A stretch of 64,000 nucleotides of DNA from Escherichia phage arall: the sequence record MN850584.1. The stretch is one strand, 5' to 3'. Made by a program: the position numbers and the translations under genes. The notes beneath the pieces were generated by a model. It was not told the DNA's origin and made no database searches. It was given only the letters and a program-made list of their open reading frames with translations. This document shows, piece after piece, positions 38,527 through 55,590 of this stretch (positions within the stretch are counted from its first letter, which is position 1; each line of letters starts with the position of its first letter).

Positions 38527-38759
38527 TACACATTCTCCTCTTTTACCAATTCCATCGTTGAATTGTCAAAACCATCTTTAGAAGAATAGGTATAGACAGA
38601 ACGTAGTTCTCGCAGGACAGTGAATACATTAGGATCATCTAACCAAGCATCCTGGAGGAGAACATAACGATCTTCATTGTCATACTGAACAGCAATCATA
38701 GAACCAGACAGTTTGTAAATTTTAATATTCATAATATATTTCTCCTTAAAGTAGACCAC
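38526..38759 (-). CDS. hypothetical protein
   Basis: 77 aa ORF; true start may be the internal MNIKIYKL. Confidence 0.35.
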   Translation of the reverse strand: MVYFKEKYIMNIKIYKLSGSMIAVQYDNEDRYVLLQDAWLDDPNVFTVLRELRSVYTYSSKDGFDNSTMELVKEENV

Positions 38760-39849
38760 GTTTAACAGTTTGAATCATACCATCTTCAAGAGATTGCACT
38801 TCTTGAATGTAATCAATACGAGCAGCACGGGCTTCAGTGTTGATTCGGTTAGTTTCTTCCAACATTTTAACTAAGTTTTCTTGATCACGACGCAATGTTT
38901 CAATATCCAATACTTGACGATTAGCAAGTTGTGTAGCTTCAATCTGGTTTTGTGCAGCCAGATCACTACCCATTGCAATAGCAGCATTAAATTCATTCAG
39001 TACGTTGTTCTGTGTATCGGCTGCTTTCTTCTGGCGTAGACTTTCAATATACATAGAAAAGTTTGCAGAGTAAGCAGGAATAACATTATTCACAATATTA
39101 CGGGCTGATCGCATCAAACTTGCAGATACTTTCTGCATACTTTGTACACGTGGCCCCATCTGAACACATAGTAAGCGTAGGGCTTTCAGGTCTGCAATAC
39201 GAATTTCAAGCAGATCCATAGTATCACGAGTACGTTGACGCTCTTCTACCTCATTTTCAGGTAGTGTATTAAGGCGAATTTCTTCTTTTTCATAAGTAGC
39301 TGTTAGAAGCTCTATATCCCTGTTTAAGCTAAGGGCATATTTTGCAATAGCCTCTTCTAAACGTTGCAGATATCGTAAAGAATCTTCTTCTTTTTTCAAG
39401 TCTGTTTGGAGTGTCTTTACCAAACCTTCAATACGGTTATTGATGGTGTCAAATTCTCCAAACAAATCTTCTTTCATACCTAAAACTTTCTTAACTAGTT
39501 TACCTAAACCTTTAGATTGTTTAATAGAGTTAGGATCAAGTTGCTTTGCTTGCTTAATAAGTGCAGTTAAACGTTCACTCATTTCATCTCCCTGAGATGA
39601 ACGCTGGTGTTTAAGCACTTCAGCATTAAGGTTACGAAGAGTAAGTCCTGCATCAGCACCAACCTGTTCAATCTCTTCACGAGACATTGGAGGCAGCATT
39701 TGTACAGGGCGTGCAACAGCAGGGGCATATACAGGGCTTGCATCCATAGCACTTGGAGCAAACAAAGACTTACTTTTTTCTGTTGTTGCCGTGAATACAC
39801 TCATTTCAGACGGTTTGCTTTTTACGGCACTGATAAAAGGACTGGACAT
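38746..39849 (-). CDS. helical protein, TelA-like (toxic anion resistance family) candidate
   Basis: 367 aa; GGAGGA RBS; predicted all-helical with coiled-coil heptads; size and position between TerD and TerC as in yce-type operons; no motif confirmed. Confidence 0.35.
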   Translation of the reverse strand: MSSPFISAVKSKPSEMSVFTATTEKSKSLFAPSAMDASPVYAPAVARPVQMLPPMSREEIEQVGADAGLTLRNLNAEVLKHQRSSQGDEMSERLTALIKQAKQLDPNSIKQSKGLGKLVKKVLGMKEDLFGEFDTINNRIEGLVKTLQTDLKKEEDSLRYLQRLEEAIAKYALSLNRDIELLTATYEKEEIRLNTLPENEVEERQRTRDTMDLLEIRIADLKALRLLCVQMGPRVQSMQKVSASLMRSARNIVNNVIPAYSANFSMYIESLRQKKAADTQNNVLNEFNAAIAMGSDLAAQNQIEATQLANRQVLDIETLRRDQENLVKMLEETNRINTEARAARIDYIQEVQSLEDGMIQTVKRGLL

Positions 39850-39917
39850 TCAATTTCCTCCATATTCTTTAGTAGATGGTGATACCTCTGTACCACCATC
39901 ATAACACAAATTAAGTA

Positions 39918-40769
39918 TTAAACAAACATATCTAAATAATTTGTAGTAATAAATGCTCCATCTGCTTCCAGATTAACATAACCCGTGGTATTAGCAGTTA
40001 AGAAATCCAGATCGAAGGACTCTTTAACACCCCGTACCTCAACACGAGAGATATCGAATACAGGTAGTGTAACAGCCTCTTCGTGCAATACCGTACCTTT
40101 GTAGGTTGCCTTAATGATAAACTTGATATTACCTGTTCCAGCATCATATAAAACACTTTCAAACCCTTTGAGAGTATATTTATCACCAGAAGTGAAGTGC
40201 AAAGTTGCTTTGTTTACAGTACGTTTCTTACGAGGAGTTCCTTTCACACATTTATGATCACTACGTTTTTTGTATTTAGGAATGAATACAAACGATACAC
40301 TCTCAAGAAAGGTATCAACATCAAGGATTTTAATATCCTCTGTTGCAGCAAATTTTGAAGTCGTTGCATCAAAATGCTTTTCCCTGCGATCATACATAAA
40401 GATATCAAACCGATCTTCTAAATCAAACAAATTATGTATTTTAATTTCAGAATGCTTGCGCATTGCAGCAACCTTGAACTCTTCAAAACGTGGGTGTTCT
40501 ACAAGTTCTTCAAGTTTTACACCAAAGATAGTATATTGCTTCGAAGTCTTTTCTGGTGTTGGCATTACAGAAGCATAGTCCCCGATTGCGCTCTTAAAGC
40601 AAAATTGTTCTTGACCTGTATTTTTACCAACGAATTTACAGTATTCGTCATCGTGCATACTTTCCTTGGTAGTACCAACAAACTCAAAACCATCTTTATT
40701 CTTCTCAAGGATTTCTTGATTAAAGATCCAACCTTCCAGGCGATATACTTTACCAACTTCTAGTTTCAT
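39918..40769 (-). CDS. hypothetical protein
   Basis: 283 aa; GGAGAAACAG upstream. Confidence 0.45.
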   Translation of the reverse strand: MKLEVGKVYRLEGWIFNQEILEKNKDGFEFVGTTKESMHDDEYCKFVGKNTGQEQFCFKSAIGDYASVMPTPEKTSKQYTIFGVKLEELVEHPRFEEFKVAAMRKHSEIKIHNLFDLEDRFDIFMYDRREKHFDATTSKFAATEDIKILDVDTFLESVSFVFIPKYKKRSDHKCVKGTPRKKRTVNKATLHFTSGDKYTLKGFESVLYDAGTGNIKFIIKATYKGTVLHEEAVTLPVFDISRVEVRGVKESFDLDFLTANTTGYVNLEADGAFITTNYLDMFV

Positions 40770-40804
40770 CTGTTTCTCCTTCTTATTTAATCTGTATTAA
40801 ATTA

Positions 40805-41395
40805 TTAACGACGACGTGAGCTACTAAAACTACGTTTCGACGAAGAATAACTTTTCGAAGACTTACTATAAGAGCTAATAGGGCTTGAGTAAGACTTACG
40901 AGCAGAGTAATCACTATTCACTTTTGTTGTTGACGGGCGTGAATACGTTTGTACACTTTGCTGCTTAATTGTGTTTTGTTTAGTGGTTGTATATGTATTT
41001 CCTTGTTTATCATAAAAACTATGCTTTTGTGTTGTATATGCTTTACTGTTAGTTGTAGGAGCAGCGTTGTTATTAATAATTGTTGTGCTGCTACCACCAT
41101 CTCTATAACCGCCACCGCCACTATTACCACTCAACATATGACCAAGAAGCATACCTGTAGCAAACTCACCTACACCAGACGAACCACTGCCGCCTCCTTG
41201 CACAACAACTGTTGAAGGTTGTGCAGGTGCTGCTTGAACAACTTGAGGTGCAGGCTGGTTTACATATTGTTCATCTACCATCTGATTTGGTGTTTGTTGG
41301 TAACGTTGATTTTGTACATTTTCAGAATCATCACAACCTACCAGCAATGCACTACCTAAAACAACTGCAACAATAAAAGATTTAATGTTTTTCAT
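40805..41395 (-). CDS. lipoprotein with low-complexity Ser/Tyr/Lys-rich tail
   Basis: 196 aa from ATG at 41395 (GAGAGGG RBS); signal peptide with lipobox LVGC (MKNIKSFIVAVVLGSALLVGC); C-terminus YSSPISSYSKSSKSYSSSKRSFSSSRRR. Confidence 0.55.
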   Translation of the reverse strand: MKNIKSFIVAVVLGSALLVGCDDSENVQNQRYQQTPNQMVDEQYVNQPAPQVVQAAPAQPSTVVVQGGGSGSSGVGEFATGMLLGHMLSGNSGGGGYRDGGSSTTIINNNAAPTTNSKAYTTQKHSFYDKQGNTYTTTKQNTIKQQSVQTYSRPSTTKVNSDYSARKSYSSPISSYSKSSKSYSSSKRSFSSSRRR

Positions 41396-41588
41396 TTGTA
41401 ACCCTCTCATTTAAAGTCTCAACACAATTTTTAAAATCCCTAGAGAAACAATACATCTGTTCTCCGTTCCTGTTGATAGTAATTGTATGGTTATCAATAT
41501 ATGTTGTCAAGATAAAAATCAAACAAAACAACCCTAGAGCAAAACAAATATTTTCAAACAGAATCCAAAGAACACGTAAAACCACCAT
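41382..41588 (-). CDS. small membrane protein (candidate)
   Basis: 68 aa; GAGGTGA RBS; one hydrophobic helix (FALGLFCLIFILTTY); overlaps lipoprotein start by 14 nt. Confidence 0.3.
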   Translation of the reverse strand: MVVLRVLWILFENICFALGLFCLIFILTTYIDNHTITINRNGEQMYCFSRDFKNCVETLNERVTNEKH

Positions 41589-41599
41589 CAGATCACCTC

Positions 41600-41623
41600 A
41601 ACAAAGCCCCCCGAAGGGGCTTA
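41600..41623 (-). terminator. terminator-like hairpin after terC
   Basis: AAGCCCC-TTCGG-GGGGCTT on - strand; weak T-tract. Confidence 0.4.
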
Positions 41624-41628
41624 ATGAA

Positions 41629-42606
41629 TTAAGCAACAGTCTGGTCTTCTTTTTCAGGGAAGATTAAACTTGCAAGAACACCCAGCCCAAGAGTACCTAA
41701 CACAATATACATACTGATCGTCGGGTCAATGTGTGCTGGCAGGAAACTCATTTTTGCGTGCAGAGTTTCTGCAAACGGATGATACATCAGTTTTACACCA
41801 ACAAATACCAGGACTACGATAACTGCTTTCTCCAGATGAACCAAATACTTCAGTGCAACACTAAGAACAAAGAACAGAGCACGTAAACCTAAGATTGCAC
41901 AGAGCATCGAAGAGAACACCAGCAGAGGTTCTTGTGTCACTGCAATTACTGCTGGAACAGAGTCTACTGCAAAGATTACGTCAACCATTTCCATTACAAA
42001 CACACAAACCAGAGCCGGAGTTGCTACACGAACACCATTTTTTATTGTGAAGAACTTCTCACCATTCATCTGATCAGATACAGGGAACAGCTTACGAACA
42101 ATGCGAGTAGCCCAGTGTTTAGAGTAATCAACTTCTGCATCATCATCCCCAGCGAATACCATTTTAGCCGCACAGAAAAGGATGACAGCACCGAAGAAGA
42201 TATTAACATACCAGCCCAAACTCAACAAGTAAGTACCTACTGCTACAAACACACCTCGGAAGACAATCGCACCTGCAATACCCCAAAGTAGAATTTTGTG
42301 CTGCAAGTGTGTGCTTTTAATACCAAAACTTGCGAAGACTGCCACAAATACTACTAAGTTATCTACAGAAAGAGATTTCTCCAACACATACCCACTCAAG
42401 AACAAGCTCGCAAAATCAGCACCGTGTTGGAAGTATACAAAACCATAGTAGGCTAATGATACCCCAATCCAGAAAATTGACCAGCCAATTGCAGATTTAA
42501 ATGAAATTTCTTTGTTTTCTCTGTGTCCAAAGAAGTCAATACAAATCGACAAGACTAAAATACCCACTAAAACAACCACATCAATAATTGGGAAACCCAG
42601 TTGCAT
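41629..42606 (-). CDS. terC: TerC-family integral membrane protein
   Basis: 325 aa; multiple TM helices; hallmark YVLEKSLSVDNLVVFVAVF (E-x-SLSVDN); AGGAGA RBS. Confidence 0.7.
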   Translation of the reverse strand: MQLGFPIIDVVVLVGILVLSICIDFFGHRENKEISFKSAIGWSIFWIGVSLAYYGFVYFQHGADFASLFLSGYVLEKSLSVDNLVVFVAVFASFGIKSTHLQHKILLWGIAGAIVFRGVFVAVGTYLLSLGWYVNIFFGAVILFCAAKMVFAGDDDAEVDYSKHWATRIVRKLFPVSDQMNGEKFFTIKNGVRVATPALVCVFVMEMVDVIFAVDSVPAVIAVTQEPLLVFSSMLCAILGLRALFFVLSVALKYLVHLEKAVIVVLVFVGVKLMYHPFAETLHAKMSFLPAHIDPTISMYIVLGTLGLGVLASLIFPEKEDQTVA

Positions 42607-42683
42607 TCTTTTCTCCTCTTTAATGCGGAGGACAATCCTCCGCTCTATGTCTTATACTATAAACTGTTTTTAAAGAAAGTCAA

Positions 42684-42932
42684 CTAGTTCAGTTCTGTAA
42701 TTTTAAGTTTATCTTCTTTGTTAATGATAGGGAAAGCTACAGCATCACCTACGTCATCAATAAAGCAAATAGCAAGACCACCTTCCACTTTGCTAATCTG
42801 ACCATTAAAGGCGTGATACGGGGCAGGAACTTGATCTCCATCTTCAAGGAGAATAGCCTCGTAAACCTTGCCGATAGTACAATCACGAGTGTTTCTAAAT
42901 TTTTCAAGCACTTCAACATTTACTTTACGCAT
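42684..42932 (-). CDS. hypothetical protein
   Basis: 82 aa ORF with GAGAGGA RBS. Confidence 0.4.
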   Translation of the reverse strand: MRKVNVEVLEKFRNTRDCTIGKVYEAILLEDGDQVPAPYHAFNGQISKVEGGLAICFIDDVGDAVAFPIINKEDKLKITELN

Positions 42933-42946
42933 ATAAAAATCCTCTC

Positions 42947-43153
42947 TTATTTGTTAGATTGAAAGATACCACGGAGTACCGCAAGAATGAACGTCACACA
43001 GACTACACTCCAAAACGTTACAGGAACATGATGCCAGTCTAAGCCGATAATGTCAATCATATAGTTGTATGCTAAAAGCAGTAGCCAACTAGGGATTAAC
43101 ACAATCAAAAACACAACAATAAAACAACCTAATACTGCTAAAACACCTGCCAT
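42947..43153 (-). CDS. small two-TM membrane protein
   Basis: 68 aa; two hydrophobic helices; GGAGAAAG RBS. Confidence 0.4.
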   Translation of the reverse strand: MAGVLAVLGCFIVVFLIVLIPSWLLLLAYNYMIDIIGLDWHHVPVTFWSVVCVTFILAVLRGIFQSNK

Positions 43154-43162
43154 ACTTTCTCC

Positions 43163-43879
43163 TTATTTCAGTTTGTAAACAATTACATTTAAACCTTTGT
43201 TTACTAGAGTTTCTTCGATCATAAGTTTTACAATATTCCAAGAACCTCCAGCCAAACCACAACCAAGCATTGGTAAACCTACAATTTTACCGCCTGAAGA
43301 TACAACATCGTCTCCCATACTATCTAACGCATTGTAGATAGCTTCATAATTCAGGTCACGCTTACCTTCCTCACGACGACTATAACCATATTGTCCATAT
43401 AAATTATAAATTGTCAAATTGTTTTCTGTATACTTAGTAAACGTACCTAATTTTTTATAATCACCACGTTTAGTGGCACAATCTGCTTTAAACGCACCAG
43501 GCCACTTGCTTTTAATTTTTGGTGCAATACCACTACCCATAGTGCAAAAACAGTTACAGCAGTGTGCTATAGCGTCTATATCGCCTCTCTCGGCTGCTGC
43601 TAAAAGATCACCGTATACCTCAATGATACCTGCTAGATAACTTGTTACAATTTCATCTTCCCAGTACATTTGCTCTACACCACCGATCAGTGCAAAGTTT
43701 TGTGTAAGGCGATCATCAATATAGTTAAGACCTGAAACATACACAGCATATTCATCCTGTGCTGTAATACCTTGTACACGAATTCTTAAGACACCATCTT
43801 TATCTGTTGCTACACGCCCAAAATCTTTTTCTGTAATATTGGTGATAGGATCTCCGAAAGTCATTACTTTATTAGACAT
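43163..43879 (-). CDS. macro-domain protein (TARG1/Poa1p/DarG-like) with N-terminal extension
   Basis: 238 aa from ATG at 43879 (longer ORF would overlap upstream gene by 125 nt); AIAHCCNCFCTMGSGIA and VGLPMLGCGLAGGSWNIV parallel the two signature blocks of TARG1-type macro domains. Confidence 0.5.
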   Translation of the reverse strand: MSNKVMTFGDPITNITEKDFGRVATDKDGVLRIRVQGITAQDEYAVYVSGLNYIDDRLTQNFALIGGVEQMYWEDEIVTSYLAGIIEVYGDLLAAAERGDIDAIAHCCNCFCTMGSGIAPKIKSKWPGAFKADCATKRGDYKKLGTFTKYTENNLTIYNLYGQYGYSRREEGKRDLNYEAIYNALDSMGDDVVSSGGKIVGLPMLGCGLAGGSWNIVKLMIEETLVNKGLNVIVYKLK

Positions 43880-44729
43880 AATAATCCCCTTTAACATTAG
43901 ATTTGTTGATAATGTTGCTTTCAAAAAATTGACGTAGGAAATCAAAGTTCTCTTTATATTTTTCAATGTTATTGTAGCCTTCTGCAAGGCAACCAAAGAA
44001 CAGTTGTTCTACATAATACAAAGGAAGCTGTGAAAGTGCAATTTTAAAATCAACTTCGCTTTGACTCATTAGATACTTAATAGGACGAACCAAACATTTA
44101 GCATCAGTTTCTTGCTTAATCATTTTAATAAAAGCTGCCAGGTTATTGATATAGTTGAAGTTAAGTGCAGCTTCGGTATTGGCTTCTGTACCTTCATACT
44201 TTGCAAAGTACAGGAAAAACGTATCGTTTTCAACACCTTCTTTGTCTAAAATTTCAATAAGTTTTTCTTCGTGCGTTCCTGTAATATTAACATCATCAAT
44301 GAAAATCAGAGTTTTATTACCCCAGAAATCACGATTGATAGAGAAAGTGTCACCATCGATCAAAGCCTTACGATCTTCTTTGCTAAGAAATCCATAATCA
44401 TTGATATAGCTCACTTTACGATGAACGATATCCCACTCCACTGCTTTACCTCCTTTGATAGAGATTAGGTAGTTGAGGTGATCTACAAAATGTTCAGATA
44501 ACACTGTAGCTGCATTTTTCACATAGTTATATGGAGATGGAATAACAACAAAACTTTCATTTACCAGTCGTTCTTCATACTTGGAAAAGAAACTTTCAGC
44601 CAGAATGCGTCCCATTCTTTTTGCTGCTTGGTTACTACCAAACTTTAGTTTGGAATAATCTGCAATGTTAAATTTTGCTTCCTTCAGGTTAGTAAAAGTA
44701 TTAGCAAAATGTTGAATTTGATTACGCAT
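43872..44729 (-). CDS. phosphoribosyltransferase-like protein (type I PRT fold candidate)
   Basis: 285 aa; TLIFIDDVNITGTHEE resembles the PRPP-binding loop (hhhhDDhxxTGxT) of PRTases/PRPP synthetases; 8-nt overlap with HAD gene. Confidence 0.35.
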   Translation of the reverse strand: MRNQIQHFANTFTNLKEAKFNIADYSKLKFGSNQAAKRMGRILAESFFSKYEERLVNESFVVIPSPYNYVKNAATVLSEHFVDHLNYLISIKGGKAVEWDIVHRKVSYINDYGFLSKEDRKALIDGDTFSINRDFWGNKTLIFIDDVNITGTHEEKLIEILDKEGVENDTFFLYFAKYEGTEANTEAALNFNYINNLAAFIKMIKQETDAKCLVRPIKYLMSQSEVDFKIALSQLPLYYVEQLFFGCLAEGYNNIEKYKENFDFLRQFFESNIINKSNVKGDYYV

Positions 44730-45378
44730 TAATAAGTTCCTCTTTTTTAAGTTTAGCCAACAAGTCTTCTGGATTAATAATATGACAGAACTTCATCCCT
44801 ATGTCAACAGCTTTTCCATCATAAATCAAACTATCCCCAACGTGTAAAATCTCCTCTGGTGCGAGATCAAACGTTACCATTTCATCAAAAGAGAGTTTAA
44901 AAAACCTAGGATCTGGTTTACACAAGCAAAACTCATCAGAAAAATGCATAAAGTCAAATGGTAATTTTGTCAAGCCAGAATATACAGCTAAGAAACTACC
45001 AGGTACAAAATTGGTATTGCTTTTAATACTCAAAGAATAGGTTGAACTTAGCTCTTCCAACTTCTTGCAAAGTTCAGGGTTTAATATTGGAGGATGTTTT
45101 ATAAACATTGCTAAACAGTCTCTTTTTAACCCATCTACTTTATCAAGATCAATGTTCAAATGAGCAGAAAGTGTTTCCCAAGCATTTCTAGATGTTCCAC
45201 AAATGCCTTTTTCTGCTCTTAAATCCAGGAGAGTTTTTACTTCTTTATATACGGTAGCTGCTTCTACCTCAGAACAAGAGGCATACTCGGCAATAACCTT
45301 GTTGCGTTCTTCTGCATACAAAGGATTAGCAGTAATAAGAGTATTCCATACATCAAAAGAAATATGCTTAACAGTCAT
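44722..45378 (-). CDS. HAD-superfamily hydrolase (phosphatase candidate)
   Basis: 218 aa from ATG at 45378 (GGAGG RBS); motif I-like SFDVWNTLI and motif IV HVGDSLIYDG. Confidence 0.5.
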   Translation of the reverse strand: MTVKHISFDVWNTLITANPLYAEERNKVIAEYASCSEVEAATVYKEVKTLLDLRAEKGICGTSRNAWETLSAHLNIDLDKVDGLKRDCLAMFIKHPPILNPELCKKLEELSSTYSLSIKSNTNFVPGSFLAVYSGLTKLPFDFMHFSDEFCLCKPDPRFFKLSFDEMVTFDLAPEEILHVGDSLIYDGKAVDIGMKFCHIINPEDLLAKLKKEELINA

Positions 45379-45380
45379 TT

Positions 45381-45536
45381 TTAATCCTCCGTCCAAAAGA
45401 ATATCATCTGCTTAATTTTATTGATCTCTTGATGTAGTAACTTTCCAGCATGTGATTGATCTTTAATATTGACAGCAAGAATTTCAAGCTCCGTTAGTTT
45501 TTCTTGGATAGCTTTATATTCATCATCTGTAAGCAT
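45381..45536 (-). CDS. small coiled-coil protein (below ORF-track size cutoff)
   Basis: 51 aa; AAAGGGGA RBS; stop overlaps HAD start (ATGA-type coupling). Confidence 0.3.
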   Translation of the reverse strand: MLTDDEYKAIQEKLTELEILAVNIKDQSHAGKLLHQEINKIKQMIFFWTED

Positions 45537-46966: not shown

Positions 46967-47437
46967 TTAGTCAGATTCCCAAATGTTGTCTTTCTTAACC
47001 CACATTCGTTGATTATCTGAACCTCTATAACGTTTCGTTGTTGGTTGATTCATATCATACTTACCATCTATCACTATGTCAACCAGTTTTTTAATTTTCT
47101 CTGGAATTTCTTCAAAAAGATATCCTGTATATAAGACAATATCTTTTTTGTTTCCAAAACAATCTCTTACCTTCTCAAGAACATACTCTACAGTGTCAAT
47201 GTTCTCTTTGTCAAGAGGTTCACCACCTAAAACTGTTAATCCTTTAATGAAAGGTCGAGATAAATCTTCCAAGATAAGATCTAATGTTTCAGCAGTGAAC
47301 TCTTGTCCGTAGTTATACGACCAGGCTTTCTGGTTAAAGCAGCCACGGCAACCGTGGCTACAACCGCTCACCCACAAAGAGCATCTTACACCGTCACCGT
47401 TGAGCATGTCAACAGGTTCATATCCGGCGTAATTCAA
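46967..47437 (-). CDS. nrdG: anaerobic ribonucleotide reductase activating protein
   Basis: 156 aa; radical-SAM cluster motif CSHGCRGC (CxxxCxxC); overlaps nrdD stop. Confidence 0.75.
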   Translation of the reverse strand: MNYAGYEPVDMLNGDGVRCSLWVSGCSHGCRGCFNQKAWSYNYGQEFTAETLDLILEDLSRPFIKGLTVLGGEPLDKENIDTVEYVLEKVRDCFGNKKDIVLYTGYLFEEIPEKIKKLVDIVIDGKYDMNQPTTKRYRGSDNQRMWVKKDNIWESD

Positions 47438-48375
47438 AAGTGTTTCTCCCTTTCTAGTACCTCTTGCATTTTACCTTTATTATAAGGGCGAGAGTTAGGG
47501 GCAGAAAGGTATCCTGACACTCTTCTGATCACAGATATGGATTCTTCTTCGTGATTACCGCAACTTGGACACTCGAAGCCTTTAGCTGTTGCCTTAAATT
47601 CACCATGAAAACCACATTTGAAACACTGATCTACAGGTTGGTTCACGCCAAAATAAGGGATTTTGTTGTAGGCATAATCTACAAGAGTTTCCAGTGCTTG
47701 CAAGTTATTTTTAAGGTTCGGTGTTTCTACATAACCTATGTTCCCACCATTACTAATTTGTGCAAAACCTTCCTCATAATCCCACTTTTGGAACGGGGTA
47801 GTGTGCATCCATACAGGTTGATGGAAAGAGTTTGTCAAGTAGTCACGATCAATAGAGCCAGGATAGCGATCATTTAACGCTTTGGCAAATTTATAGCACA
47901 AGGATTCTGCTGGTGTTCCATACAAACTAAAAGCTAAACCAGAACGTTCTTTAAATGTGCAACAGATATCCTTCATATATTGAAGGATGTTTTTACCCAT
48001 TGCTTTTGGATTGGTGTTACCTGGGTATAAAATCTCCATAGCTTCTGCTAAACCTACATAACCGATACTAATAGAGGCATAACCACCTTCGAATAGCTTA
48101 CCAATCTCTTCATTAGCTTCTAGTCGAGCTAAAGCCCCTTCCATAAACAATGTAGGGTTTTGAGATGCTTTGGTATGTCTAATACGGTTAACACGTAGCA
48201 TATGTGCCTTATACGCCATCTCCATATGTTGTTCCAACAGTTCAGTAAATAAGATGCCCTTTTCACGGGACTCTGCTGCAATGATAGGTAAGTTTAAAGA
48301 AACTACGCCTAAGTTGAAACGACCATCATATTTTTCACCTTGCTCTGTTGCATAGTATGACAAGAAACTTCTACA
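47434..48375 (-). CDS. nrdD: anaerobic ribonucleoside-triphosphate reductase, exon 2
   Basis: Begins CRSFLSYYATEQGEKYDGRFNLGVVSLNLP; C-terminal glycyl-radical region RRVSGYL and Zn ribbon CFKC…CPSC; the ORF-track start (GTG at 48405) is intron read-through; junction approximate. Confidence 0.7.
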   Translation of the reverse strand, partial: CRSFLSYYATEQGEKYDGRFNLGVVSLNLPIIAAESREKGILFTELLEQHMEMAYKAHMLRVNRIRHTKASQNPTLFMEGALARLEANEEIGKLFEGGYASISIGYVGLAEAMEILYPGNTNPKAMGKNILQYMKDICCTFKERSGLAFSLYGTPAESLCYKFAKALNDRYPGSIDRDYLTNSFHQPVWMHTTPFQKWDYEEGFAQISNGGNIGYVETPNLKNNLQALETLVDYAYNKIPYFGVNQPVDQCFKCGFHGEFKATAKGFECPSCGNHEEESISVIRRVSGYLSAPNSRPYNKGKMQEVLEREKHF

Positions 48376-49144
48376 CATTATGTTCAAAGTGGCTCGCAAG
48401 GCCACTCCCGCACCATTACGTGCTGCTGCATGTCACCATGCAGATCAGACTATATCTTCATGCTTAAAGCATGTCTACCATTTGGGGTGTCATAGGCTTA
48501 CACCCTACGCTGCTACATTCATCACAGCTAGTCGTTAGGCATTTCGTAACAGAACTCATAATCATAATTATTTGGTGCTCCGCGCTTTAAGATTGCAGAT
48601 ATTCTTTTTCTGTCCAACCCTAAAGCGTCAGCACAACATCTCAGACTTTTAAAGTAAAAAACTTCACCAGTAGCCTTATGAGTAGCTTTTACACTGTGAC
48701 ACCTTGTGTAGAAAGCATAACAGTTATTATCGTAACCCTCTTGCGTGTTGTCTGGACAAGATCCCCACTCAAGATTGTATACACTGTTGTCTTTCCTATT
48801 GTCACCTTTATGCTTCACATAAGGTAAATTGTCTGGATTGGGTAAAAACGCTTCAGCTACAAGTCTGTGCACCCGAAAGCAAACAGTTTTCTTGTTTTTA
48901 CGTATTCTGACAAGTTGGTATCCTGTGTTTATTTCTTCCCACGAGCGAAGGATTCTTTCATCCTTATACCTGGTACAATAAACATTTCCAAGCTCGTCAA
49001 TTTCATACCCTTCAAAATCACGAATTTGTTTTCTCATACCAGTACCCCCTTCTTCTGTGTTGGGAGTTCTGTTACGTTTAGCACGGGATTGTCTCGTTGA
49101 GAGTTCCCCCGTTTAGGCAGATTTTACATGAGCAGTTATAGTTT
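48376..49144 (-). mobile_element. group I intron interrupting nrdD
   Basis: 769 nt between …ATGGGT (exon ends in U) and TGT…; ends in G; contains P/Q-like pair (CUAAACGGGGGAAC / AAUCCCGUGC) 5' of the endonuclease ORF and R/S-like elements (CCUAACGACUAGC / GAAGAUAUAGUC) 3' of it. Confidence 0.65.
48528..49037 (-). CDS. intron-encoded HNH homing endonuclease
   Basis: 169 aa; FEGYEIDELGNVYCTRYKD…YQLVRI…VHRLVAEAF…KHKGDNRKDNSVYNLEW typical of HNH_3-type homing endonucleases; stop codon falls inside the R element. Confidence 0.65.
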   Translation of the reverse strand: MRKQIRDFEGYEIDELGNVYCTRYKDERILRSWEEINTGYQLVRIRKNKKTVCFRVHRLVAEAFLPNPDNLPYVKHKGDNRKDNSVYNLEWGSCPDNTQEGYDNNCYAFYTRCHSVKATHKATGEVFYFKSLRCCADALGLDRKRISAILKRGAPNNYDYEFCYEMPND

Positions 49145-50002
49145 ACCCATGCTTGTGACGCGACCATCTGAAGATCCTGTAACTTCTTTGTTTAAAGGTA
49201 CAGAGATAAAATCAGGATAAATGCGTTCAGCACAACACTCCATTGCCAGTTGCTTCAAATCATAGTTTGGATCGCCAGCTTTCATGTTAACACCATCTTC
49301 CAAGAAGAAGATAACTTTAGGAAACACAGGAGTTACCCTATCTTTTCCTAATCCTTGTTTGTGCACCATTAGGTAGTTTTTAGTGATCATTCTACCAAAA
49401 GCAGAGGTATCCAAACCTAAACTAATTGTTATAAAAGGTGACTGACCATTTACACTCATTAGAGTGTTCACCTGGTAGATTAAAGTTTGCATTGCATCAT
49501 AGACCTGTTTATCTACCATACGCATAGCAATATCATAATCGCCAACATCGGCATATATTTTATTAAAACTTGCTTTAACGTATTGACTAAGCCCAGTATC
49601 AACATGTGCACAAGTTTGTCCACCATATTGGCTAGAAGCTACTGCTTGAATAATTTGAGTTAGGACAGTAGTCGCTACACCGATAGATTTTGGTTTTTCA
49701 ATATGTGCATTACCAATACGGAAACCGTTCTCAAGCATATCTTGGTAATTTACCAGGCAACAATTAGTTAAAGGTGAGAGTAAATAATCTAAATCGTGAA
49801 TGTGACCATACCCACTTTTATGCCATTCTGCCAGATCTTCCGGTAAAATATGGGTCATTGCCATGTGCTTGCTTAGGATACCTGCTAGTAAGTCTCGGTG
49901 AGTATTAACAATCATTGCAGGTTTGTTTGCATTTTCACGAGTAAATTCTTCGGATGTTTGTTCGAGGAATCCGATTACATCCTCATATAGTTTTTGGGTC
50001 AT
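49145..50002 (-). CDS. nrdD: anaerobic ribonucleoside-triphosphate reductase, exon 1
   Basis: N-terminal NrdD portion ending …DGRVTSMG; the last two ORF-track codons (KL*) are intron-derived; GGAGG RBS. Confidence 0.7.
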
Positions 50003-50011
50003 TAATCCTCC

Positions 50012-50044
50012 GTGGAAAATAAAAGCCAGCTTAATGCTGGCTTT
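50012..50044 (-). terminator. rho-independent terminator upstream of nrdD
   Basis: AAAGCCAGC-ATTAA-GCTGGCTTT hairpin followed by TATTTTCC on - strand. Confidence 0.55.
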
Positions 50045-50091
50045 AGGGTGGATCTTTATTTTAAATCTTTTTCGTAAGATTGTCCTTGATC

Positions 50092-51042
50092 TTAGTCAAG
50101 GTTTTTGGTAATACGTGTACAACCGTCAGAAGTCAAACCGTCAACTTGAGTTTCCCAAGTGCCATGAATATTTCGGAACAATGTTGTTACACCTTTTGGT
50201 TCATTAATAATGATTGCCATAACAAGTTTAGGATCGATAACAGACATAATCTTTTCCTCAATACCCTCTGTAATAACATTATTGCGCACAATATTAATTG
50301 CATCTTCTTGTACAGTAAGAGCACTTACATTCTTAAGAGTATATACCTGCTGTGTAGTGTAAATGATACGAACATAGCTTACAGAACGAGTAGGCACAGG
50401 TTTACGCGGTCGGCGAAAACGTGGTTTTGGTGAAGATTCAGTCTTACTTTCATTTTTTGAATAATACTCCTCAAACAGTTTAGTAAATGTTTTTACATCA
50501 ACTACAAACCGATCTTTCCTATATGGAGAATTCTTATGTGCACCATTAATACCACTGTTTTCATCGAAGAAAGTAATGTTTTCTTCAGTTGAATACATTA
50601 GATAATGATCTGCATTTTTCCAATGTGGTTGTGGACAACGAGGATTACAAACGGAAAGCAGATAACTAATATCTTCTTCCGTGGCATCAGTATCCAGGAA
50701 ACACGTATTATGCACAGTCAGTTGTACTTTTTCAGCCATATCTTTTTCTTTATCCTCTTTAGCAAGATATTCAGTACGAATAATCTCCAGAAAACCTTCA
50801 GGTGTTACTTCCATAAATTTATATTCAGGATGAAGCTCCATATATTCAAATCCACAACCATCTAATTGCTGTAGGAAGTTAGGGTAGAAGAACAAATCAT
50901 TAACACTGTGAATCAGATCATTGATTTCTGCTTCAGTTGTGTAACCAAAACTCTTGTGAATTGCTTCGTTAAGAATATGCAGGATACCCATCTCTTCTGC
51001 TGCTTTTTTAACTTCCAGTTTATTAGCGTAAAATGCAATCAT
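50092..51042 (-). CDS. hypothetical protein
   Basis: 316 aa; basic Pro-rich linker (PKPRFRRPRKPVPTR) between two domains. Confidence 0.45.
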   Translation of the reverse strand: MIAFYANKLEVKKAAEEMGILHILNEAIHKSFGYTTEAEINDLIHSVNDLFFYPNFLQQLDGCGFEYMELHPEYKFMEVTPEGFLEIIRTEYLAKEDKEKDMAEKVQLTVHNTCFLDTDATEEDISYLLSVCNPRCPQPHWKNADHYLMYSTEENITFFDENSGINGAHKNSPYRKDRFVVDVKTFTKLFEEYYSKNESKTESSPKPRFRRPRKPVPTRSVSYVRIIYTTQQVYTLKNVSALTVQEDAINIVRNNVITEGIEEKIMSVIDPKLVMAIIINEPKGVTTLFRNIHGTWETQVDGLTSDGCTRITKNLD

Positions 51043-51059
51043 TATGTTCTCCTTCTAAA

Positions 51060-51494
51060 TTAGTTTAAAATTTCTTTGGCAATGGTAGAAGCAAGTTTTC
51101 CATCATATTGATTAGGATACTCTGCTTTAAGGTGTTTCATCATATCTGGCATTTTCTTGCCTGTCAAGGCAAATTCTTCAGCAATCGCTCGAAGGTCATC
51201 TTCAGATAGCATTTCTGGTAAATATTTTTCCAGGGTGGTGATATCCCGCATAGCTCGCTCACATTTGCTAATGGAGGCATTAACTTTCTTAAGCGAGTCT
51301 AGTTCCTCTTTAGCGTGTGCAATACCAATCTTAACAATGTTAATCATAATATCATCTTCTGATTTATTCAGATTTGCCTTTTGAGTACGAGCAAGGTCAA
51401 ACTCACCAATAATATTAGTTAACAAAGCAAAAGCACCCTTATCGGTTGTACGTGCTAAGATACGATCTGCTTTCATTTGTGTCACAATAGACAT
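51060..51494 (-). CDS. GatB/YqeY-domain protein
   Basis: 144 aa; C-terminal KYLPEMLSEDDLRAIAEEFA…KKMPDMMKHLKAEYPNQYDGKLASTIAKEIL fits the YqeY pattern. Confidence 0.5.
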   Translation of the reverse strand: MSIVTQMKADRILARTTDKGAFALLTNIIGEFDLARTQKANLNKSEDDIMINIVKIGIAHAKEELDSLKKVNASISKCERAMRDITTLEKYLPEMLSEDDLRAIAEEFALTGKKMPDMMKHLKAEYPNQYDGKLASTIAKEILN

Positions 51495-51506
51495 TCTATT
51501 CTCCTC

Positions 51507-52079
51507 TTATTTGCCAATGCTTTGAATCTTATTTACAACACGGTTTATTGCCAGTGAAGCCCTAGGCTCCGCAATACCTGTTGCATAGATATAAGGATGA
51601 CCTTTTGGAGACTCCCTCATACCGAATGAACCTAATTCTAAACCATATTCATCCTCTACGTCAACCCCAATATTAGTGGGTACTAAATATGTTTTAACTC
51701 CATAATAAGTAGAGAAGAAACAGCGCATAGAGTTAGCATACTCTTCAATTGTAGCATCAGGGTAGAACTCAATCAACTCCAATTTCAAGAAAATATTAAA
51801 ATGGGTATCATCTAAATTTTCTTCTGTACGGTAACATGGCGTTAGTGCCATATACGGATTACCTGCTGCAAATTCAAAACCATCCTTCTCCATTTGCAGG
51901 AAAGATTGTTCTGCACTAGCTACATAGTATTTACCGTTAGGATGCCCTAATGGGCGATCCTCTTTATTTTCTGGTAGTGTGTACGCCAGTATATCAGCAT
52001 CCACGAGATATGGAACTTCTAACATTTGTGCAAATCGACCATAGTACTCAATAGCTTGAGCTATTACTGCAACATTCAT
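51507..52079 (-). CDS. hypothetical protein (enzyme-like, unassigned)
   Basis: 190 aa; no motif recognised. Confidence 0.45.
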   Translation of the reverse strand: MNVAVIAQAIEYYGRFAQMLEVPYLVDADILAYTLPENKEDRPLGHPNGKYYVASAEQSFLQMEKDGFEFAAGNPYMALTPCYRTEENLDDTHFNIFLKLELIEFYPDATIEEYANSMRCFFSTYYGVKTYLVPTNIGVDVEDEYGLELGSFGMRESPKGHPYIYATGIAEPRASLAINRVVNKIQSIGK

Positions 52080-52327
52080 GATCGACCTCCATTGCGGAAT
52101 GCACGTTTAGTAATGTTTGACATAGTGATCAAATCTTGAAGCGTCATATCAGGAAAATGCTGTTCAAGAACACCTTCAACAGCGCCTACAATATCTGATA
52201 ACTCAATAAGTTGCATCAGCTTGCAATCTTGATCAATAGCATCTTGAAGTTCATAAAGCTCTTCTTGAATCTTAGCAACAGAACCATATTCCTCTTTGCT
52301 AATCTCCTTCAAATGATACCCTGCCAC
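52076..52327 (-). CDS. small MazG/HisE-like all-alpha NTP pyrophosphohydrolase (candidate)
   Basis: 83 aa; EELYELQDAI…LIELSDIVGAVE resembles the EExxE…ELxD metal-binding helices. Confidence 0.3.
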   Translation of the reverse strand: MAGYHLKEISKEEYGSVAKIQEELYELQDAIDQDCKLMQLIELSDIVGAVEGVLEQHFPDMTLQDLITMSNITKRAFRNGGRS

Positions 52328-52337
52328 TTTAACCCCC

Positions 52338-55112
52338 TTAGTTTACCAGTTTATTTATATCTGGTAAAAGATTTATTTCACCTAAGAAATCACCTTCACC
52401 TTCCTCTAGCCAACTCTCATATGCTTGTGCATGATTATAGTTACCATCAAAAGAATCTGCAACAAATTTTTCTACAGTTTTTCGAGATGTGCCAGCGCCA
52501 AATACACCAAGTTTAATACCATTGATCGGTAAAGTGGTGCTTGTGGGTACTTTCTCTGTTGCAACACGGTTGATATCTATAATCTCCTGTACGGTTGTAT
52601 TCCATTGTAAGCATTTAACACAACGGGTGTGCGCTACATACAGTAGGTTTCGCTCTGCCTCTTCCAGTCCTACCCATTCACCAGTCTTTTTATCATAGTT
52701 GGAAGGAAAATCATTAGCAACAATAACCTGATCCCACTCCAAACCTTTAGACTTGTGTGCTGTAGTAAGTGTGACTTTTGCTGTAGGAGAATTTCTATGC
52801 GTTCTAAGTGTATGTGCTATAGTGTTTGCCTTACCAGAAACTACGATGTTTAACAAGCGTTTAGCATCTGGATCAGCCTCTGCACACTCAACAAATTCAT
52901 CCCAGTCTGCGTAAGGTAATACAGTTTCATGTTTTACTTTCTCAATATCTCCTCTCCGAAGAGCATTAACACTATCTACCATAGAGATAAAATCCCTGGT
53001 ATCTACGTTAATAATAATTTCTTCCCCATCTGCAATACGATCCATTGCCTCCATAAGCAAGGTTAAATTCTTGCGAAAGATGATAGTGTAAGGTTTTGTA
53101 TAGTCTACAACATCTGATTTGTAGCTACCTACTACAGTATCAAAGCCTTTACCAACCAAAGGGTGACGCAAAGGTTCTTTATCGCTTAAAATCATATTGG
53201 CAATGTTTGCCACTTTGGGGCCAAAACGGAAGCAAGCAGTTAATGGAAGCTCTGCCCCATACTTAGCTGTTTCAATCATCATATTAGAGCTACCTCTAAA
53301 TTGATAAATGCAGTTGTGGCTAAGAATTTCATTGCCAAAGAAGTTAGCAGTATCCTCTACTTCAATATCATAATAGATACCCTCACTATCTACAATGTCC
53401 ACAATCTCTTCTGCCGTTACAGTATCACCATCTTTTACCAACACAGACATGCCTTTAAACAAACCCGCTGCCGGAATTAAGTTATATTTGGCACTGTTCA
53501 CAGAGGACATGCATTCTTTTAAAGATGCAAACGGAACTATTTCAAGGATCTTTTGTGCAAAACTCAATGCTTCACGATAAGAATTGAAATATTTACGTAC
53601 ACGGTAACGACCTTCCAATTTAGCAGCACTTACGCTTACACCTGCTTTAATCAGTGAAGAATAGATCGGCATTTCACTTTCTGTCCACTCAAAACTAACT
53701 TGTGTTCCTTTACAACTTTGTGCTCGCAAAGTCACTGTTAGCATTTTTCTTTCATCTACTGCACAATTGATGCTGTGCCAGTGTGGATAAGCAAAATGAT
53801 AATCTTTATCCTCTAAAAGTTTAAAACCATTTTGTCCGAATTGTTCAAAGATGTTATTGATCCTTTCTTGATTAATGCCGCGTGAACTTGCTTCAAATAC
53901 ACAAGTAGGAATGCCATATTGTAAACTGTATGCCATTTCTTTTTCCATAGCAGCTTCACGGTTTTCAACAATATCCAACACCCATAATTTCTGTGCTTTT
54001 TCAGAACGTGTACGTTGCCCCAGTTTAGAAAAACCTTCTTTATCATCGAATTTGTTAGTGATCCCTACTCGGAAACCTAAATCTTTCCTCCACATTAGGT
54101 ATACCACCATCTGATCATCTTTCAGAACATAGGATGAAGCCCAAATACGATGGTTATGTGTCATATCTAAAGTTTTACCTGTGGCAGTAATAATATTCCT
54201 ACCTTTTGTACGTGTAGATAAAGTCTTATTTGTTACTTTTCTAAATGTAACTTTACCATTAGAGTAAGACTCTACCTTATCACCGATTTGCAGGTCTTTC
54301 ATTGTAACCTGACCATTCTCGGTATTAAGTACCGTGTTTTCCGACACACATTGGAATTCATCGCCCACTACCACAATTTGTTTTGCAGATTTAGCATTTC
54401 GCAGAATAGACAAGAATGCAGGGTTAACATCCTGGAATTCATCACCAAAAATAATATCATAACCAAGATCAGCACCAGACAATTCAAACAATTTTACATA
54501 GGTGTCATGCGTCATCAAAGTATCTGTATTAGGATCAATGCGCTCTCGCCACAATTGTTTTGCATACTTAACTACTTCTGTAATTAGTTTGTGTTCGTTA
54601 ATACCTTTTCTTTTAATATCTGCAAGATGTACACTAGGAAAATGTTTACGGCTGATAAAAGGATCATCCGAAAATTCAAACTTACCTACGGTTTGTTTGA
54701 TCATTAAACCAATCATAGCACGAGTTAACAGTGTTTTCCCTCGTTTATCAATAAGATTATTAATCTTAAATTTCTTTGCTATCTCGCTACCTGTACCTGC
54801 AACGTTAACATACTGTCCTTCTGGTCGTGACAGTTTTGCACGTAAACGATGATCCAGGAATTGATAGCAAATAGAATGCAATGTACGGCATTCTACATTT
54901 AGTGGCATCTTACGTCGTGCTTCTTCTGCCATGCTTTTATTGAAAGCTAAGTAAAGAATGCGATCTTCTGTACTGTTAGCCAGCAAATAAAGTGTTGACG
55001 TTTTGCCTGATCCAGATTTAGCTTGGATAGTTAAAAAGCGATGGTCTGGAAAAGCCTCCTTAATAGCTGTTTGCTCTTCTGTTGGAGTGAAGCTCAACTC
55101 TTTCTTAGCCAT
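52338..55112 (-). CDS. SF1 (UvrD/Rep-like) DNA helicase, intein-containing
   Basis: Start set at MAKKELSF (GAGG RBS); Walker A AKSGSGKT, motif II FGDEFQD, motif III VVVGDEFQ/CIYQFRGSS split by the intein, motif VI-like TAHKSKGLEWDQV. Confidence 0.7.
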   Translation of the reverse strand: MAKKELSFTPTEEQTAIKEAFPDHRFLTIQAKSGSGKTSTLYLLANSTEDRILYLAFNKSMAEEARRKMPLNVECRTLHSICYQFLDHRLRAKLSRPEGQYVNVAGTGSEIAKKFKINNLIDKRGKTLLTRAMIGLMIKQTVGKFEFSDDPFISRKHFPSVHLADIKRKGINEHKLITEVVKYAKQLWRERIDPNTDTLMTHDTYVKLFELSGADLGYDIIFGDEFQDVNPAFLSILRNAKSAKQIVVVGDEFQCVSENTVLNTENGQVTMKDLQIGDKVESYSNGKVTFRKVTNKTLSTRTKGRNIITATGKTLDMTHNHRIWASSYVLKDDQMVVYLMWRKDLGFRVGITNKFDDKEGFSKLGQRTRSEKAQKLWVLDIVENREAAMEKEMAYSLQYGIPTCVFEASSRGINQERINNIFEQFGQNGFKLLEDKDYHFAYPHWHSINCAVDERKMLTVTLRAQSCKGTQVSFEWTESEMPIYSSLIKAGVSVSAAKLEGRYRVRKYFNSYREALSFAQKILEIVPFASLKECMSSVNSAKYNLIPAAGLFKGMSVLVKDGDTVTAEEIVDIVDSEGIYYDIEVEDTANFFGNEILSHNCIYQFRGSSNMMIETAKYGAELPLTACFRFGPKVANIANMILSDKEPLRHPLVGKGFDTVVGSYKSDVVDYTKPYTIIFRKNLTLLMEAMDRIADGEEIIINVDTRDFISMVDSVNALRRGDIEKVKHETVLPYADWDEFVECAEADPDAKRLLNIVVSGKANTIAHTLRTHRNSPTAKVTLTTAHKSKGLEWDQVIVANDFPSNYDKKTGEWVGLEEAERNLLYVAHTRCVKCLQWNTTVQEIIDINRVATEKVPTSTTLPINGIKLGVFGAGTSRKTVEKFVADSFDGNYNHAQAYESWLEEGEGDFLGEINLLPDINKLVN
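53313..54350 (-). mobile_element. intein (346 aa) inserted in helicase motif III
   Basis: N-terminal CVSENTVLNTENG, block B-like MTHNH, C-terminal …EILSHN followed by extein Cys; removing it restores VVVGDEFQ-CIYQFRGSS. Confidence 0.6.
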
Positions 55113-55113
55113 T

Positions 55114-55590
55114 TCAACCTCTCTTAATTTGTTTAACAAGCATAGGAACAAAATCTCGTTTTAAAATTTGTTCAATAATATGATCAGGTAGCTGTTGGAA
55201 ATTATAATTAAAAGCTACTGTCTCACCTTTAGGTGTTTCTACCCGCACATATAACATGTTACGAAGTTTATCCACTTGTGCTGTGTATTCTAAACCATGT
55301 AATTGATGCATTGCAAACATCAAATCATCAGTTTCAGTTTGGAATCTATCATTTGCTTGCATTAAGGACAAGGTAAAAGGTAGATTTTCCCTAAGAGCCA
55401 CCTTCTTAGGAACTAGTGAAGGAAAATACTCACCAATAACTTCCTGTGTAAGCTGGATACACTCTTTTTCAAGTTGGTTTTGTTCCTTAAGTTCACAAAC
55501 ACTTTTTTGTAAAGTGTTAACCTCTTTTTGCAAAGCTGCTAGTTGAGCACTTAACTTTCTTTTTTGATTACGACCAAAACGTTTAGACAT
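55114..55590 (-). CDS. hypothetical protein
   Basis: 158 aa; basic N-terminus with coiled coil. Confidence 0.45.
   Translation of the reverse strand: MSKRFGRNQKRKLSAQLAALQKEVNTLQKSVCELKEQNQLEKECIQLTQEVIGEYFPSLVPKKVALRENLPFTLSLMQANDRFQTETDDLMFAMHQLHGLEYTAQVDKLRNMLYVRVETPKGETVAFNYNFQQLPDHIIEQILKRDFVPMLVKQIKRG

Follow-up and report, generated by a model that had tools for sequence, protein, structure and literature searches.

A class II aminoacyl-tRNA-synthetase core and a putative MazG-type pyrophosphohydrolase form a conserved gene pair in Escherichia phage arall and other phages

Within a 64,000 nt stretch of Escherichia phage arall (sequence record MN850584.1; the whole stretch is referred to as the window) we analysed two overlapping genes on the minus strand which recur together in diverse large phages. 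The first (52076-52327, GTG start) encodes a putative MazG/HisE-type all-alpha nucleotide pyrophosphohydrolase-like protein of 83 amino acids (aa). The second (51507-52079) encodes a protein of 190 aa which, judged from sequence profiles and a structure model, is a free-standing catalytic core of a class II aminoacyl-tRNA synthetase closest to seryl-tRNA synthetase (SerRS). They are called MazG-like protein and mini-synthetase in the following. The enzyme folds as such are familiar; their partnership is widely conserved but undescribed, and we are highly confident that the two proteins act together. We are moderately confident that the mini-synthetase would activate an amino acid, probably serine or a similar one, to the aminoacyl-adenylate. 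A transfer of this amino acid to a nucleotide-type acceptor, which the MazG-like subunit would supply or trim, is our tentative reading, to which we assign a probability of about 0.4.

The two-gene pair is the functional unit

Using the mini-synthetase as seed, 80 viral loci were fetched. Many belong to jumbo phages (200-578 kb), and together with three loci fetched earlier they form a set of 83. A MazG-like gene is present in 80 of the 83, always on the same strand. It adjoins the mini-synthetase either immediately downstream or immediately upstream, and in the upstream position 20 loci share the 4-nt overlap of the window. Of the three loci in which it seemed to be missing, one (L064) does carry a MazG-like gene (L173). 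A collection of 185,579 species genomes contained the mini-synthetase in 15 loci only, all on contigs of metagenome-assembled genomes (MAGs) or unplaced contigs, and the partner was found in 13 of these. The reciprocal search was seeded with a broad alignment of the MazG-like subfamily, whereby 77 of 80 loci showed a mini-synthetase within 3 kb on the same strand. Moreover, in L062, L071, L072, L075, L080 and L082 one open reading frame (ORF) of 262-266 aa encodes both proteins as a fusion whose N-terminal part is the synthetase, and single-ORF fusions also occur in the genome collection (L087, L089 and L096). An unbiased clustering of neighbouring ORFs revealed no other widely conserved gene beside the pair in the 83 loci; the next most frequent neighbour was an RlaP nucleotidyltransferase, located within 6 kb in 12 of them. 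Taken together, adjacent or fused pairing is near-obligate over the roughly 180 metagenomic and viral loci examined, and the side-by-side position of 52076-52327 and 51507-52079 far exceeds what chance would produce.

At the pair junction in the window (52076-52090) the stop and start codons overlap as ATGA (52079-52076), and a GGAGG Shine-Dalgarno sequence (52090-52086) is located inside the end of the MazG-like gene. Such a junction is typical of translationally coupled genes.

By tblastn the mini-synthetase was detected in 272 cultured phage records. Among these carriers are phi92-like and phAPEC8-like coliphages, phages of Erwinia, Pectobacterium and Cronobacter, T4-like phages of Acinetobacter and Morganella, jumbo siphophages of Caulobacter (phiCbK-like) and Brevundimonas, Microcystis phage Ma-LMM01 and coliphages of the BASEL collection. 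The Vibrio jumbo phage 2.275.O carries it as well. Both superfamilies are well known, and genome records annotate the genes separately. The phi92 annotation lists a 'putative seryl-tRNA synthetase' and a 'MazG-type fold' as separate genes, and the genome description of Citromicrobium phage RXM likewise lists SerRS and MazG separately (PMC8953757).

Escherichia phage phi92 and some 55 relatives of the genus Justusliebigvirus share 98-99% identity with the region 50000-52400. It comprises four ORFs (50092-52327), all on the minus strand and homologous to phi92 gp194-gp197, whereby gp197 corresponds to the MazG-like protein and gp196 to the mini-synthetase. The other two encode a hypothetical protein of 316 aa (50092-51042, gp194 homologue) and a YqeY/GatB-tail domain protein of 144 aa (51060-51494, gp195 homologue). 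Upstream of the four genes there is a UvrD helicase with an intein (52338-55151), and downstream there are a split nrdD and nrdG. A preliminary description of this region, made from the sequence alone, had placed the four ORFs between the ribonucleotide reductase (RNR) genes and the helicase, which is confirmed here with exactly the same coordinates. It had also suggested that they form one auxiliary module with a nucleotide- or translation-related role. Such a role is reasonable, but the unit was chosen wrongly, as only the MazG-like gene and the mini-synthetase are conserved together.

The YqeY gene is found in 2 of the 83 loci around the pair, both phi92-like, and the 316-aa family in 3, restricted to phi92-like and phAPEC8-like phages. 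Accordingly, both genes are neighbours outside the conserved pair, and only the phi92 and phAPEC8 lineages show all four genes in this order. A close relative (L103) with 78% amino-acid identity in helicase and YqeY and 73% in an AAA ATPase shows the order helicase, two small ORFs, YqeY, 316-aa homologue and AAA ATPase, without the pair and without nrdDG. In another relative (L104) the helicase is directly followed by the 316-aa homologue. Because L103 keeps YqeY and the 316-aa gene without the pair, and the pair occurs elsewhere without them, the cluster is composite: a mobile two-gene unit was inserted in a backbone which already held YqeY and the 316-aa gene as neighbours. The unit of function is the pair and not the cluster of four.

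In the alternative view of one auxiliary module with four genes, the nucleotide pool would be sanitised by the MazG/HisE-like protein alone, and the other three genes would have loosely nucleotide- or translation-related tasks. This would be in line with the location between nrdD/nrdG and the helicase. Moreover MazG-like house-cleaning enzymes are common in phages (PMC7824862). However, in 77 of 80 loci the MazG-like subfamily accompanies the mini-synthetase as a neighbour or in a fusion and hardly occurs otherwise, which is unexpected for stand-alone house-cleaning. The restricted four-gene order, the missing pair in L103 and a terminator-like hairpin that separates the cluster from nrdD speak against the module as well. 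It is largely contradicted by synteny and in our view very improbable. Simple nucleotide-pool sanitation or alarmone hydrolysis, as considered in the preliminary description, is an incomplete reading for the same MazG-like protein because it is near-obligately coupled to a mini-synthetase.

Features of the two proteins

The product of 51507-52079 had been left unassigned in the preliminary description. It can be placed as a class II synthetase core, and the phi92 record already names gp196 'putative Seryl-tRNA synthetase', while RefSeq and PHROG use 'histidyl tRNA synthetase'. Either label overstates the knowledge of this protein. An alignment of 36 homologues shows motif 1 as GY....VPYLV (P23), motif 2 as TPCYRxE...FLKLE (R84, F97, K99, E101) and motif 3 as GTGLAEPR, which reads GTGIAEPR in the gp196 homologue of the window (T167, R173). 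A SerRS-like SAEQSF loop (S55, E57) and an ELGSFG/ELGSYG string (E148, S151) are present in addition. Homologues range from 176 to 200 aa. Among 90 unique family members S55, E57, Q58, C82, R84, F97, K99, E101, E148, G150, S151, G153, T167, P172 and R173 are invariant; P23, R84, F97/K99/E101 and the string T167-G-x-A-E-P-R173 are invariant or nearly so and can be aligned with SerRS of E. coli and Aquifex.

The profile of the 36 homologues was compared with PDB sequences. The best match is SerRS 2dq3 (E=1e-4), followed by further SerRS, PylRS and few AspRS/AsnRS entries. Using hhalign, E. coli SerRS was matched with 87% probability over residues 186-298, a section spanning motif 1, the TAE loop and motif 2. 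By motif, the invariant residues correspond to T237/E239, R268, F287/K289/E291, E355/S358 and S391/R397 of E. coli SerRS, which we take to be residues binding ATP, Mg and serine. The equivalents of the serine pocket (S55/E57, E101 and T167) are invariant, whereby the alignment covers the N-terminal half and the C-terminal equivalences derive from motif matching only.

The AlphaFold2 (AF2) model of the mini-synthetase (pLDDT 95.4) exhibits the antiparallel beta-sheet fold of class II. A Foldseek search of the PDB with this model resulted in E values of about 1e-9 and TMq of 0.69-0.75 to the catalytic domains of PylRS and SerRS. A tRNA-recognition domain, either anticodon-binding or of the SerRS coiled-coil arm type, is absent, since according to the secondary structure of the model the core uses all 190 aa.

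The class II fold with motifs 1, 2 and 3 is shared with SerRS. Corresponding strings (mini-synthetase/SerRS) are SAE/TAE, TPCYRxE/TPCFRSE, FLKLE/FDKVE, ELGSxG/EISSCS and GTGxAEPR/GSGLAVGR. In contrast, the mini-synthetase measures 190 aa compared to about 430 aa, shows about 15-18% identity and has a shortened motif 2 loop. It also lacks the N-terminal coiled-coil arm by which SerRS addresses the variable arm of tRNA-Ser and, unlike SerRS, is phage-restricted apart from the bacterial contigs described below and near-obligately paired with a MazG-like protein. SerRS is the top sequence-profile match but shares the top of the fold search with PylRS, whose catalytic domain gives the best Foldseek matches in the TMq range given above. 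Bacterial PylS is split into the catalytic core PylSc and a small separate protein PylSn encoded alongside. The pair resembles this arrangement by combining a catalytic core with a small protein from the adjoining gene; however, its partner is of the MazG/HisE type and not the tRNA-binding PylSn, and its core is about 80 aa shorter than PylSc.

Synthetase cores have been redeployed for other acceptors or for regulation in the amino-acid:carrier-protein ligases, AsnA, PoxA/EpmA, HisZ and YadB/GluQRS. Like these truncated paralogues, the mini-synthetase is a free-standing core without anticodon-binding domain, but it is smaller than any of them. Moreover we know of none among them that pairs with a nucleoside triphosphate (NTP) pyrophosphohydrolase.

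For 52076-52327 the earlier assignment as MazG/HisE-like is supported by three lines of evidence, namely an acidic motif, fold matches and matches in BFVD, and the protein is a putative pyrophosphohydrolase on these grounds. The metal motif E22-E23-x-x-E26...(15)...E42-x-x-D45 follows the EExxE(12-28)ExxD signature and is invariant or 99% conserved in 87 unique relatives. The preceding lysine K19 is invariant in all of them, and Y4, H5, I9, T73 and F77 are further invariant residues specific to the family. The AF2 model (pLDDT 90) consists of three helices in 83 aa. Its best PDB fold matches are the HisE structures 1yvw and 2a7w (probability 0.97 and 0.95), which are weak with E values of 0.5-1.2 and TMq of 0.56-0.58; the MazG proteins 2yxh, 3cra and 1vmg come next. 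In BFVD the model retrieves its own family followed by viral NTP-PPase, MazG and PRA-PH-like proteins. Sequence alone stays below the Pfam gathering threshold for PRA-PH (15.0 bits vs 21.3, E=0.034), and a profile search of PDB sequences with the MazG-like protein found neither HisE nor MazG.

The signature with the preceding lysine is shared with HisE and MazG enzymes, and the predicted bundle of helices may resemble theirs. The MazG-like protein differs from them by its three predicted helices in 83 aa, by the sub-threshold PRA-PH score and by two additional motifs, an invariant N-terminal G-Y-H and a C-terminal T73..F77..G80.R82. To our knowledge these two motifs are not general features of MazG/HisE proteins. 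In four jumbo-phage loci (L034 5070-6017, L045 5175-6002, L052 4953-5858 and L047 6567-7436) the MazG-like domain carries an extra N-terminal domain of about 190-230 aa. It looks cupin-like with the pattern HxW..HDH..H, comprising an invariant H..W, H-D-H and a distal H, and had no Pfam or PDB sequence match and gave no functional clue.

With 83 aa, three helices and a failed Pfam threshold, the small protein may also be seen as a non-catalytic partner. It could be an adaptor, a subunit for dimerisation or regulation, or a carrier or acceptor which the synthetase-like enzyme modifies. Precedents are the carrier proteins of the amino-acid:carrier-protein ligases and EF-P for PoxA. In addition, truncated SerRS homologues were reportedly found by Mocibob et al. 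in 2010 to acylate helical carrier proteins of roughly 80-90 aa. However, the five acidic residues and K19 of the MazG-type metal/phosphate site are conserved in the 87 sequences, and the closest folds are HisE and MazG enzymes. We consider a non-catalytic partner highly improbable. A role as acyl carrier in particular was rejected: many members have A or C in place of S44 in 'ELSD', so that this position is less than 85% conserved in the 87 sequences. The invariant phosphopantetheinylated serine of carrier-protein ligase systems is absent from the small partner.

Possible reactions of the pair

We propose that the MazG-like protein and the mini-synthetase would work as one enzyme system. At the expense of ATP, the synthetase-like subunit would convert a small amino acid, for which serine is the most likely candidate, to an aminoacyl-adenylate. 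The amino acid would then be transferred to a nucleotide-type acceptor, chosen without reading an anticodon. In the same pathway the MazG-like subunit would cleave the alpha-beta bond of an NTP, supplying or trimming the acceptor nucleotide. The product would be an amino-acid-nucleotide conjugate which, as suggested by genomic context, may act on translation or the tRNA apparatus. Three findings were counted towards such small-molecule chemistry: the near-obligate partner is of a nucleotide-hydrolase type, both families are acidic with a median isoelectric point (pI) of about 5.1-5.3, and the MazG-like protein is fused to cupin-like domains in some jumbo phages.

Related logic is known from two systems: MazZ feeds PurZ in phages with 2-aminoadenine DNA, and Pur7 acts with Pur6 in puromycin biosynthesis. 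In both, an NTP pyrophosphatase is encoded along with an ATP-dependent ligase of amino acids and nucleotides or nucleosides, as proposed for the pair. PurZ is part of the phage 2-aminoadenine pathway (PMC12884076). The ligases are unrelated, however, as they are PurA-like or Pur6 and not class II synthetase-like. Moreover, phi92-like phages differ from MazZ-PurZ phages by showing no sign of modified DNA.

A further lead comes from bacterial MAG contigs of Pirellulaceae and Verrucomicrobiia (L088 1686-3428 and L090 2609-6637), where a mini-synthetase without MazG-like partner is located about 115-120 nt downstream of a sulfotransferase gene. In L090 a gene of the Trp-halogenase family (flavin halogenase) follows after another 860 nt or so. 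These three enzyme types also occur together in the ascamycin cluster, which makes an aminoacyl-sulfamoyl-adenosine (PMC4257720). A metagenome scan for this sulfotransferase-linked bacterial subtype found three short contigs only, with no further context.

The main rival is direct action on tRNA acceptor ends, which we consider unlikely. The mini-synthetase would bind the CCA end of phage or host tRNAs without anticodon check and would charge, protect or repair it. The MazG-like partner would remove a pyrophosphate-type block or handle the nucleotide used, and in the phi92 lineage YqeY would serve as trans-acting tRNA-binding helper. The role would be to maintain translation or to counter tRNA-targeting defences. 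By homology the fold is that of a tRNA-charging enzyme, and tRNA genes are found within 6 kb of the pair in 24 of 96 loci. In about 10 loci (L027, L029, L041, L043, L044, L057, L060, L083, L032 and L068) the pair is located inside or against tRNA arrays. For contigs above 200 kb, 9 of 24 loci have tRNAs nearby compared to about 1.5 expected, under a crude one-array null and with lineages that are non-independent. A class I synthetase gene is situated near the pair in L003. The RlaP gene found near the pair in the loci mentioned above encodes a repair enzyme for RNA 3' ends (PMC12776372), and YqeY, which adjoins the pair in this phage, has domains resembling those of GatB and GlnRS (PMC13374519).

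Several features speak against an action on tRNA ends. The mini-synthetase lacks a domain for tRNA binding, its motif 2 loop is shortened and its pI is acidic. We know of no reaction at tRNA ends that requires an NTP alpha-beta pyrophosphohydrolase. L103 contains YqeY but not the pair, and in the set of 83 YqeY is absent near the pair outside phi92-like loci; as an obligatory trans-acting tRNA-binding subunit of the mini-synthetase it is disfavoured by synteny. Regions with tRNA genes are hot spots for accessory genes, and the window itself contains no tRNA gene.

Two further RNA genes were seen near the pair: L053 carries a tRNA whose anticodon is CTA (amber-suppressor; 10956-11030), and L055 carries a phage tmRNA (4111-4503).

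An alternative in dinucleoside-polyphosphate or alarmone metabolism can be drawn from the side reaction by which class II synthetases such as LysU produce Ap4A. The synthetase core would then make Ap4A-type compounds from aminoacyl-AMP and NTP, and the MazG-like partner would shape or degrade these or alarmones such as (p)ppGpp, thereby reprogramming host physiology. Both enzymes would act at the alpha-phosphate of ATP or NTP, the predicted catalytic residues are conserved, and MazG has historically been linked to (p)ppGpp. However, it would be futile to produce a compound only to degrade it again, and no genomic-context evidence points to alarmone pathways. We regard this alternative as improbable.

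Returning to the amino-acid-nucleotide conjugate, the following points weigh against it. The steps of the mechanism are inferred from sequence, models and gene context, and the presumed serine specificity depends on aligned residues whose roles are those in SerRS structures. In view of three helices and the failed Pfam threshold the MazG-like protein could be non-catalytic. The enrichment at tRNA arrays, which suggested a target in translation, could reflect hyperplastic genome regions and non-independent lineages. The sulfotransferase context of L088 and L090 is a lead only and counts as one observation because the two synthetases are 78% identical. In the searched literature nothing treats the two genes as one system, with mentions in genome annotations only, and the pair goes unmentioned in a wide-ranging survey of functions in jumbo phages (PMC7824862). 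Finally, restriction-modification systems find phi92-like phages 'exceptionally susceptible' (PMC8594841), which makes bulk incorporation of the product into DNA unlikely and takes away the best-known phage use of such pathways. A DNA hypermodification pathway is disfavoured on the same basis.

In a broader sense the pair may be a two-component phage enzyme, consisting of the smallest natural class II synthetase core and a MazG-type pyrophosphatase, which makes an aminoacyl-nucleotide or aminoacylates RNA 3' ends without anticodon recognition. Its product might be used on host translation or against defences targeting tRNA or nucleotides. We hold this complete picture to be rather doubtful. 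If true, either as an amino-acid-nucleotide conjugate or as action on tRNA ends, it would represent a new type of phage auxiliary or counter-defence chemistry. With 176-200 aa and motifs 1, 2 and 3 of class II, such a protein comes near the minimal 'urzyme' size in the debate on the origin of synthetases, and the mini-synthetase offers a natural, tractable minimal core.

Neighbouring genes and further features of the window

The preliminary assignment of 51060-51494 as YqeY-like holds. Pfam PF09424 is matched with 30.3 bits compared to a gathering score of 27 over residues 38-143 of 144, and phrog_1460 at 1.5e-36. In the PDB the protein matches B. subtilis YqeY 1ng6 (E=1.1e-4) and 8xjg (0.01). 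Compared with bacterial YqeY and the C-terminal domain of GatB it is a stand-alone phage copy, unlinked to the pair outside this lineage. YqeY is uncharacterised even in bacteria (PMC13374519). The preliminary description had suggested profile searches (HHpred) for the four proteins; profile searches against the PDB led to SerRS for 51507-52079 and to no relevant match for 52076-52327 or 50092-51042. Single-sequence PDB searches with the four proteins yielded a relevant match for YqeY only; matches to FGF, HtpG, glycerophosphate oxidase and RohS were rejected as chance matches.

The 316-aa protein (50092-51042) has no match in Pfam, NCBIfam or PDB, and the view of it as an enzyme gained no support from these searches. 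A word-indexed search found near-identical phi92-like proteins only, whereas an exhaustive HMMER scan of 1.8 billion representatives resulted in 38 relatives. These 30-odd distant phage proteins share mainly the C-terminal about 110-200 aa, which follow a basic KPRxRKxR linker; DUF7244 is found in 5 of 34 scanned relatives. A PDB profile search with the family returned no match, and no relative has a solved structure.

Public records label 50092-51042 'ribonucleotide reductase'. NrdD, however, is complete in two exons covering Pfam NRDD positions 1-263 and 263-562 without this ORF, and none of the RNR domains searched for (NRDD, Ribonuc_red, ATP-cone, glycine radical) is present in 50092-51042. 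The label is unsupported, and a function as RNR part or enzyme was rejected as no domains were found. Together with 'histidyl tRNA synthetase' for the mini-synthetase and 'tRNA amidotransferase' for the stand-alone YqeY, it belongs to the misleading RefSeq/PHROG names that need correcting.

Between the 316-aa gene and nrdD a terminator-like hairpin is located on the minus strand (50044-50022). It has a 9-bp stem with 5 GC pairs followed by a T-run and was identified in a consensus scan only. Its position suggests that the genes from the helicase to the gp194 homologue and nrdD may belong to different transcription units. An Rfam scan of the window gave no match at gathering thresholds.

The nrdD gene (47434-50002, minus strand) is split at Pfam NRDD position 263 into the ORFs 49136-50002 and 47434-48405. 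The intervening sequence of 730 nt carries an ORF resembling HNH_3/NUMOD homing endonucleases (48528-49037) and a sub-threshold match to the group I intron family RF00028 (48426-48533, 39.3 bits vs gathering score 50). In phi92 the corresponding gap is only about 247 nt long and lacks the endonuclease-like ORF. The UvrD-type helicase (52338-55151, minus strand) has Hint and Intein_splicing matches at residues about 267-613. Its counterpart in the related phage contig L104 is a 578-aa helicase without intein.

Beyond the AAA ATPase, the phi92 annotation of gp178-gp187 (window approx. 38700-45400, minus strand, by homology) comprises tellurite-resistance-like proteins, namely a TelA-like one and a membrane protein with the label putative membrane-bound tellurium resistance protein. 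A phosphatase, a hydrolase and a putative phosphoribosyltransferase are annotated there as well. This set, known from the phi92 annotation only, resembles a 'Ter-associated' system for a nucleoside-like metabolite (PMC7824862). The 'Campylobacter phages' A145, A150, C3 and A110a (MG065645, MG065639, MG065656 and MG065689; about 146 kb) share 98.4% identity with this coliphage region, and the Campylobacter host label of these four records looks doubtful.

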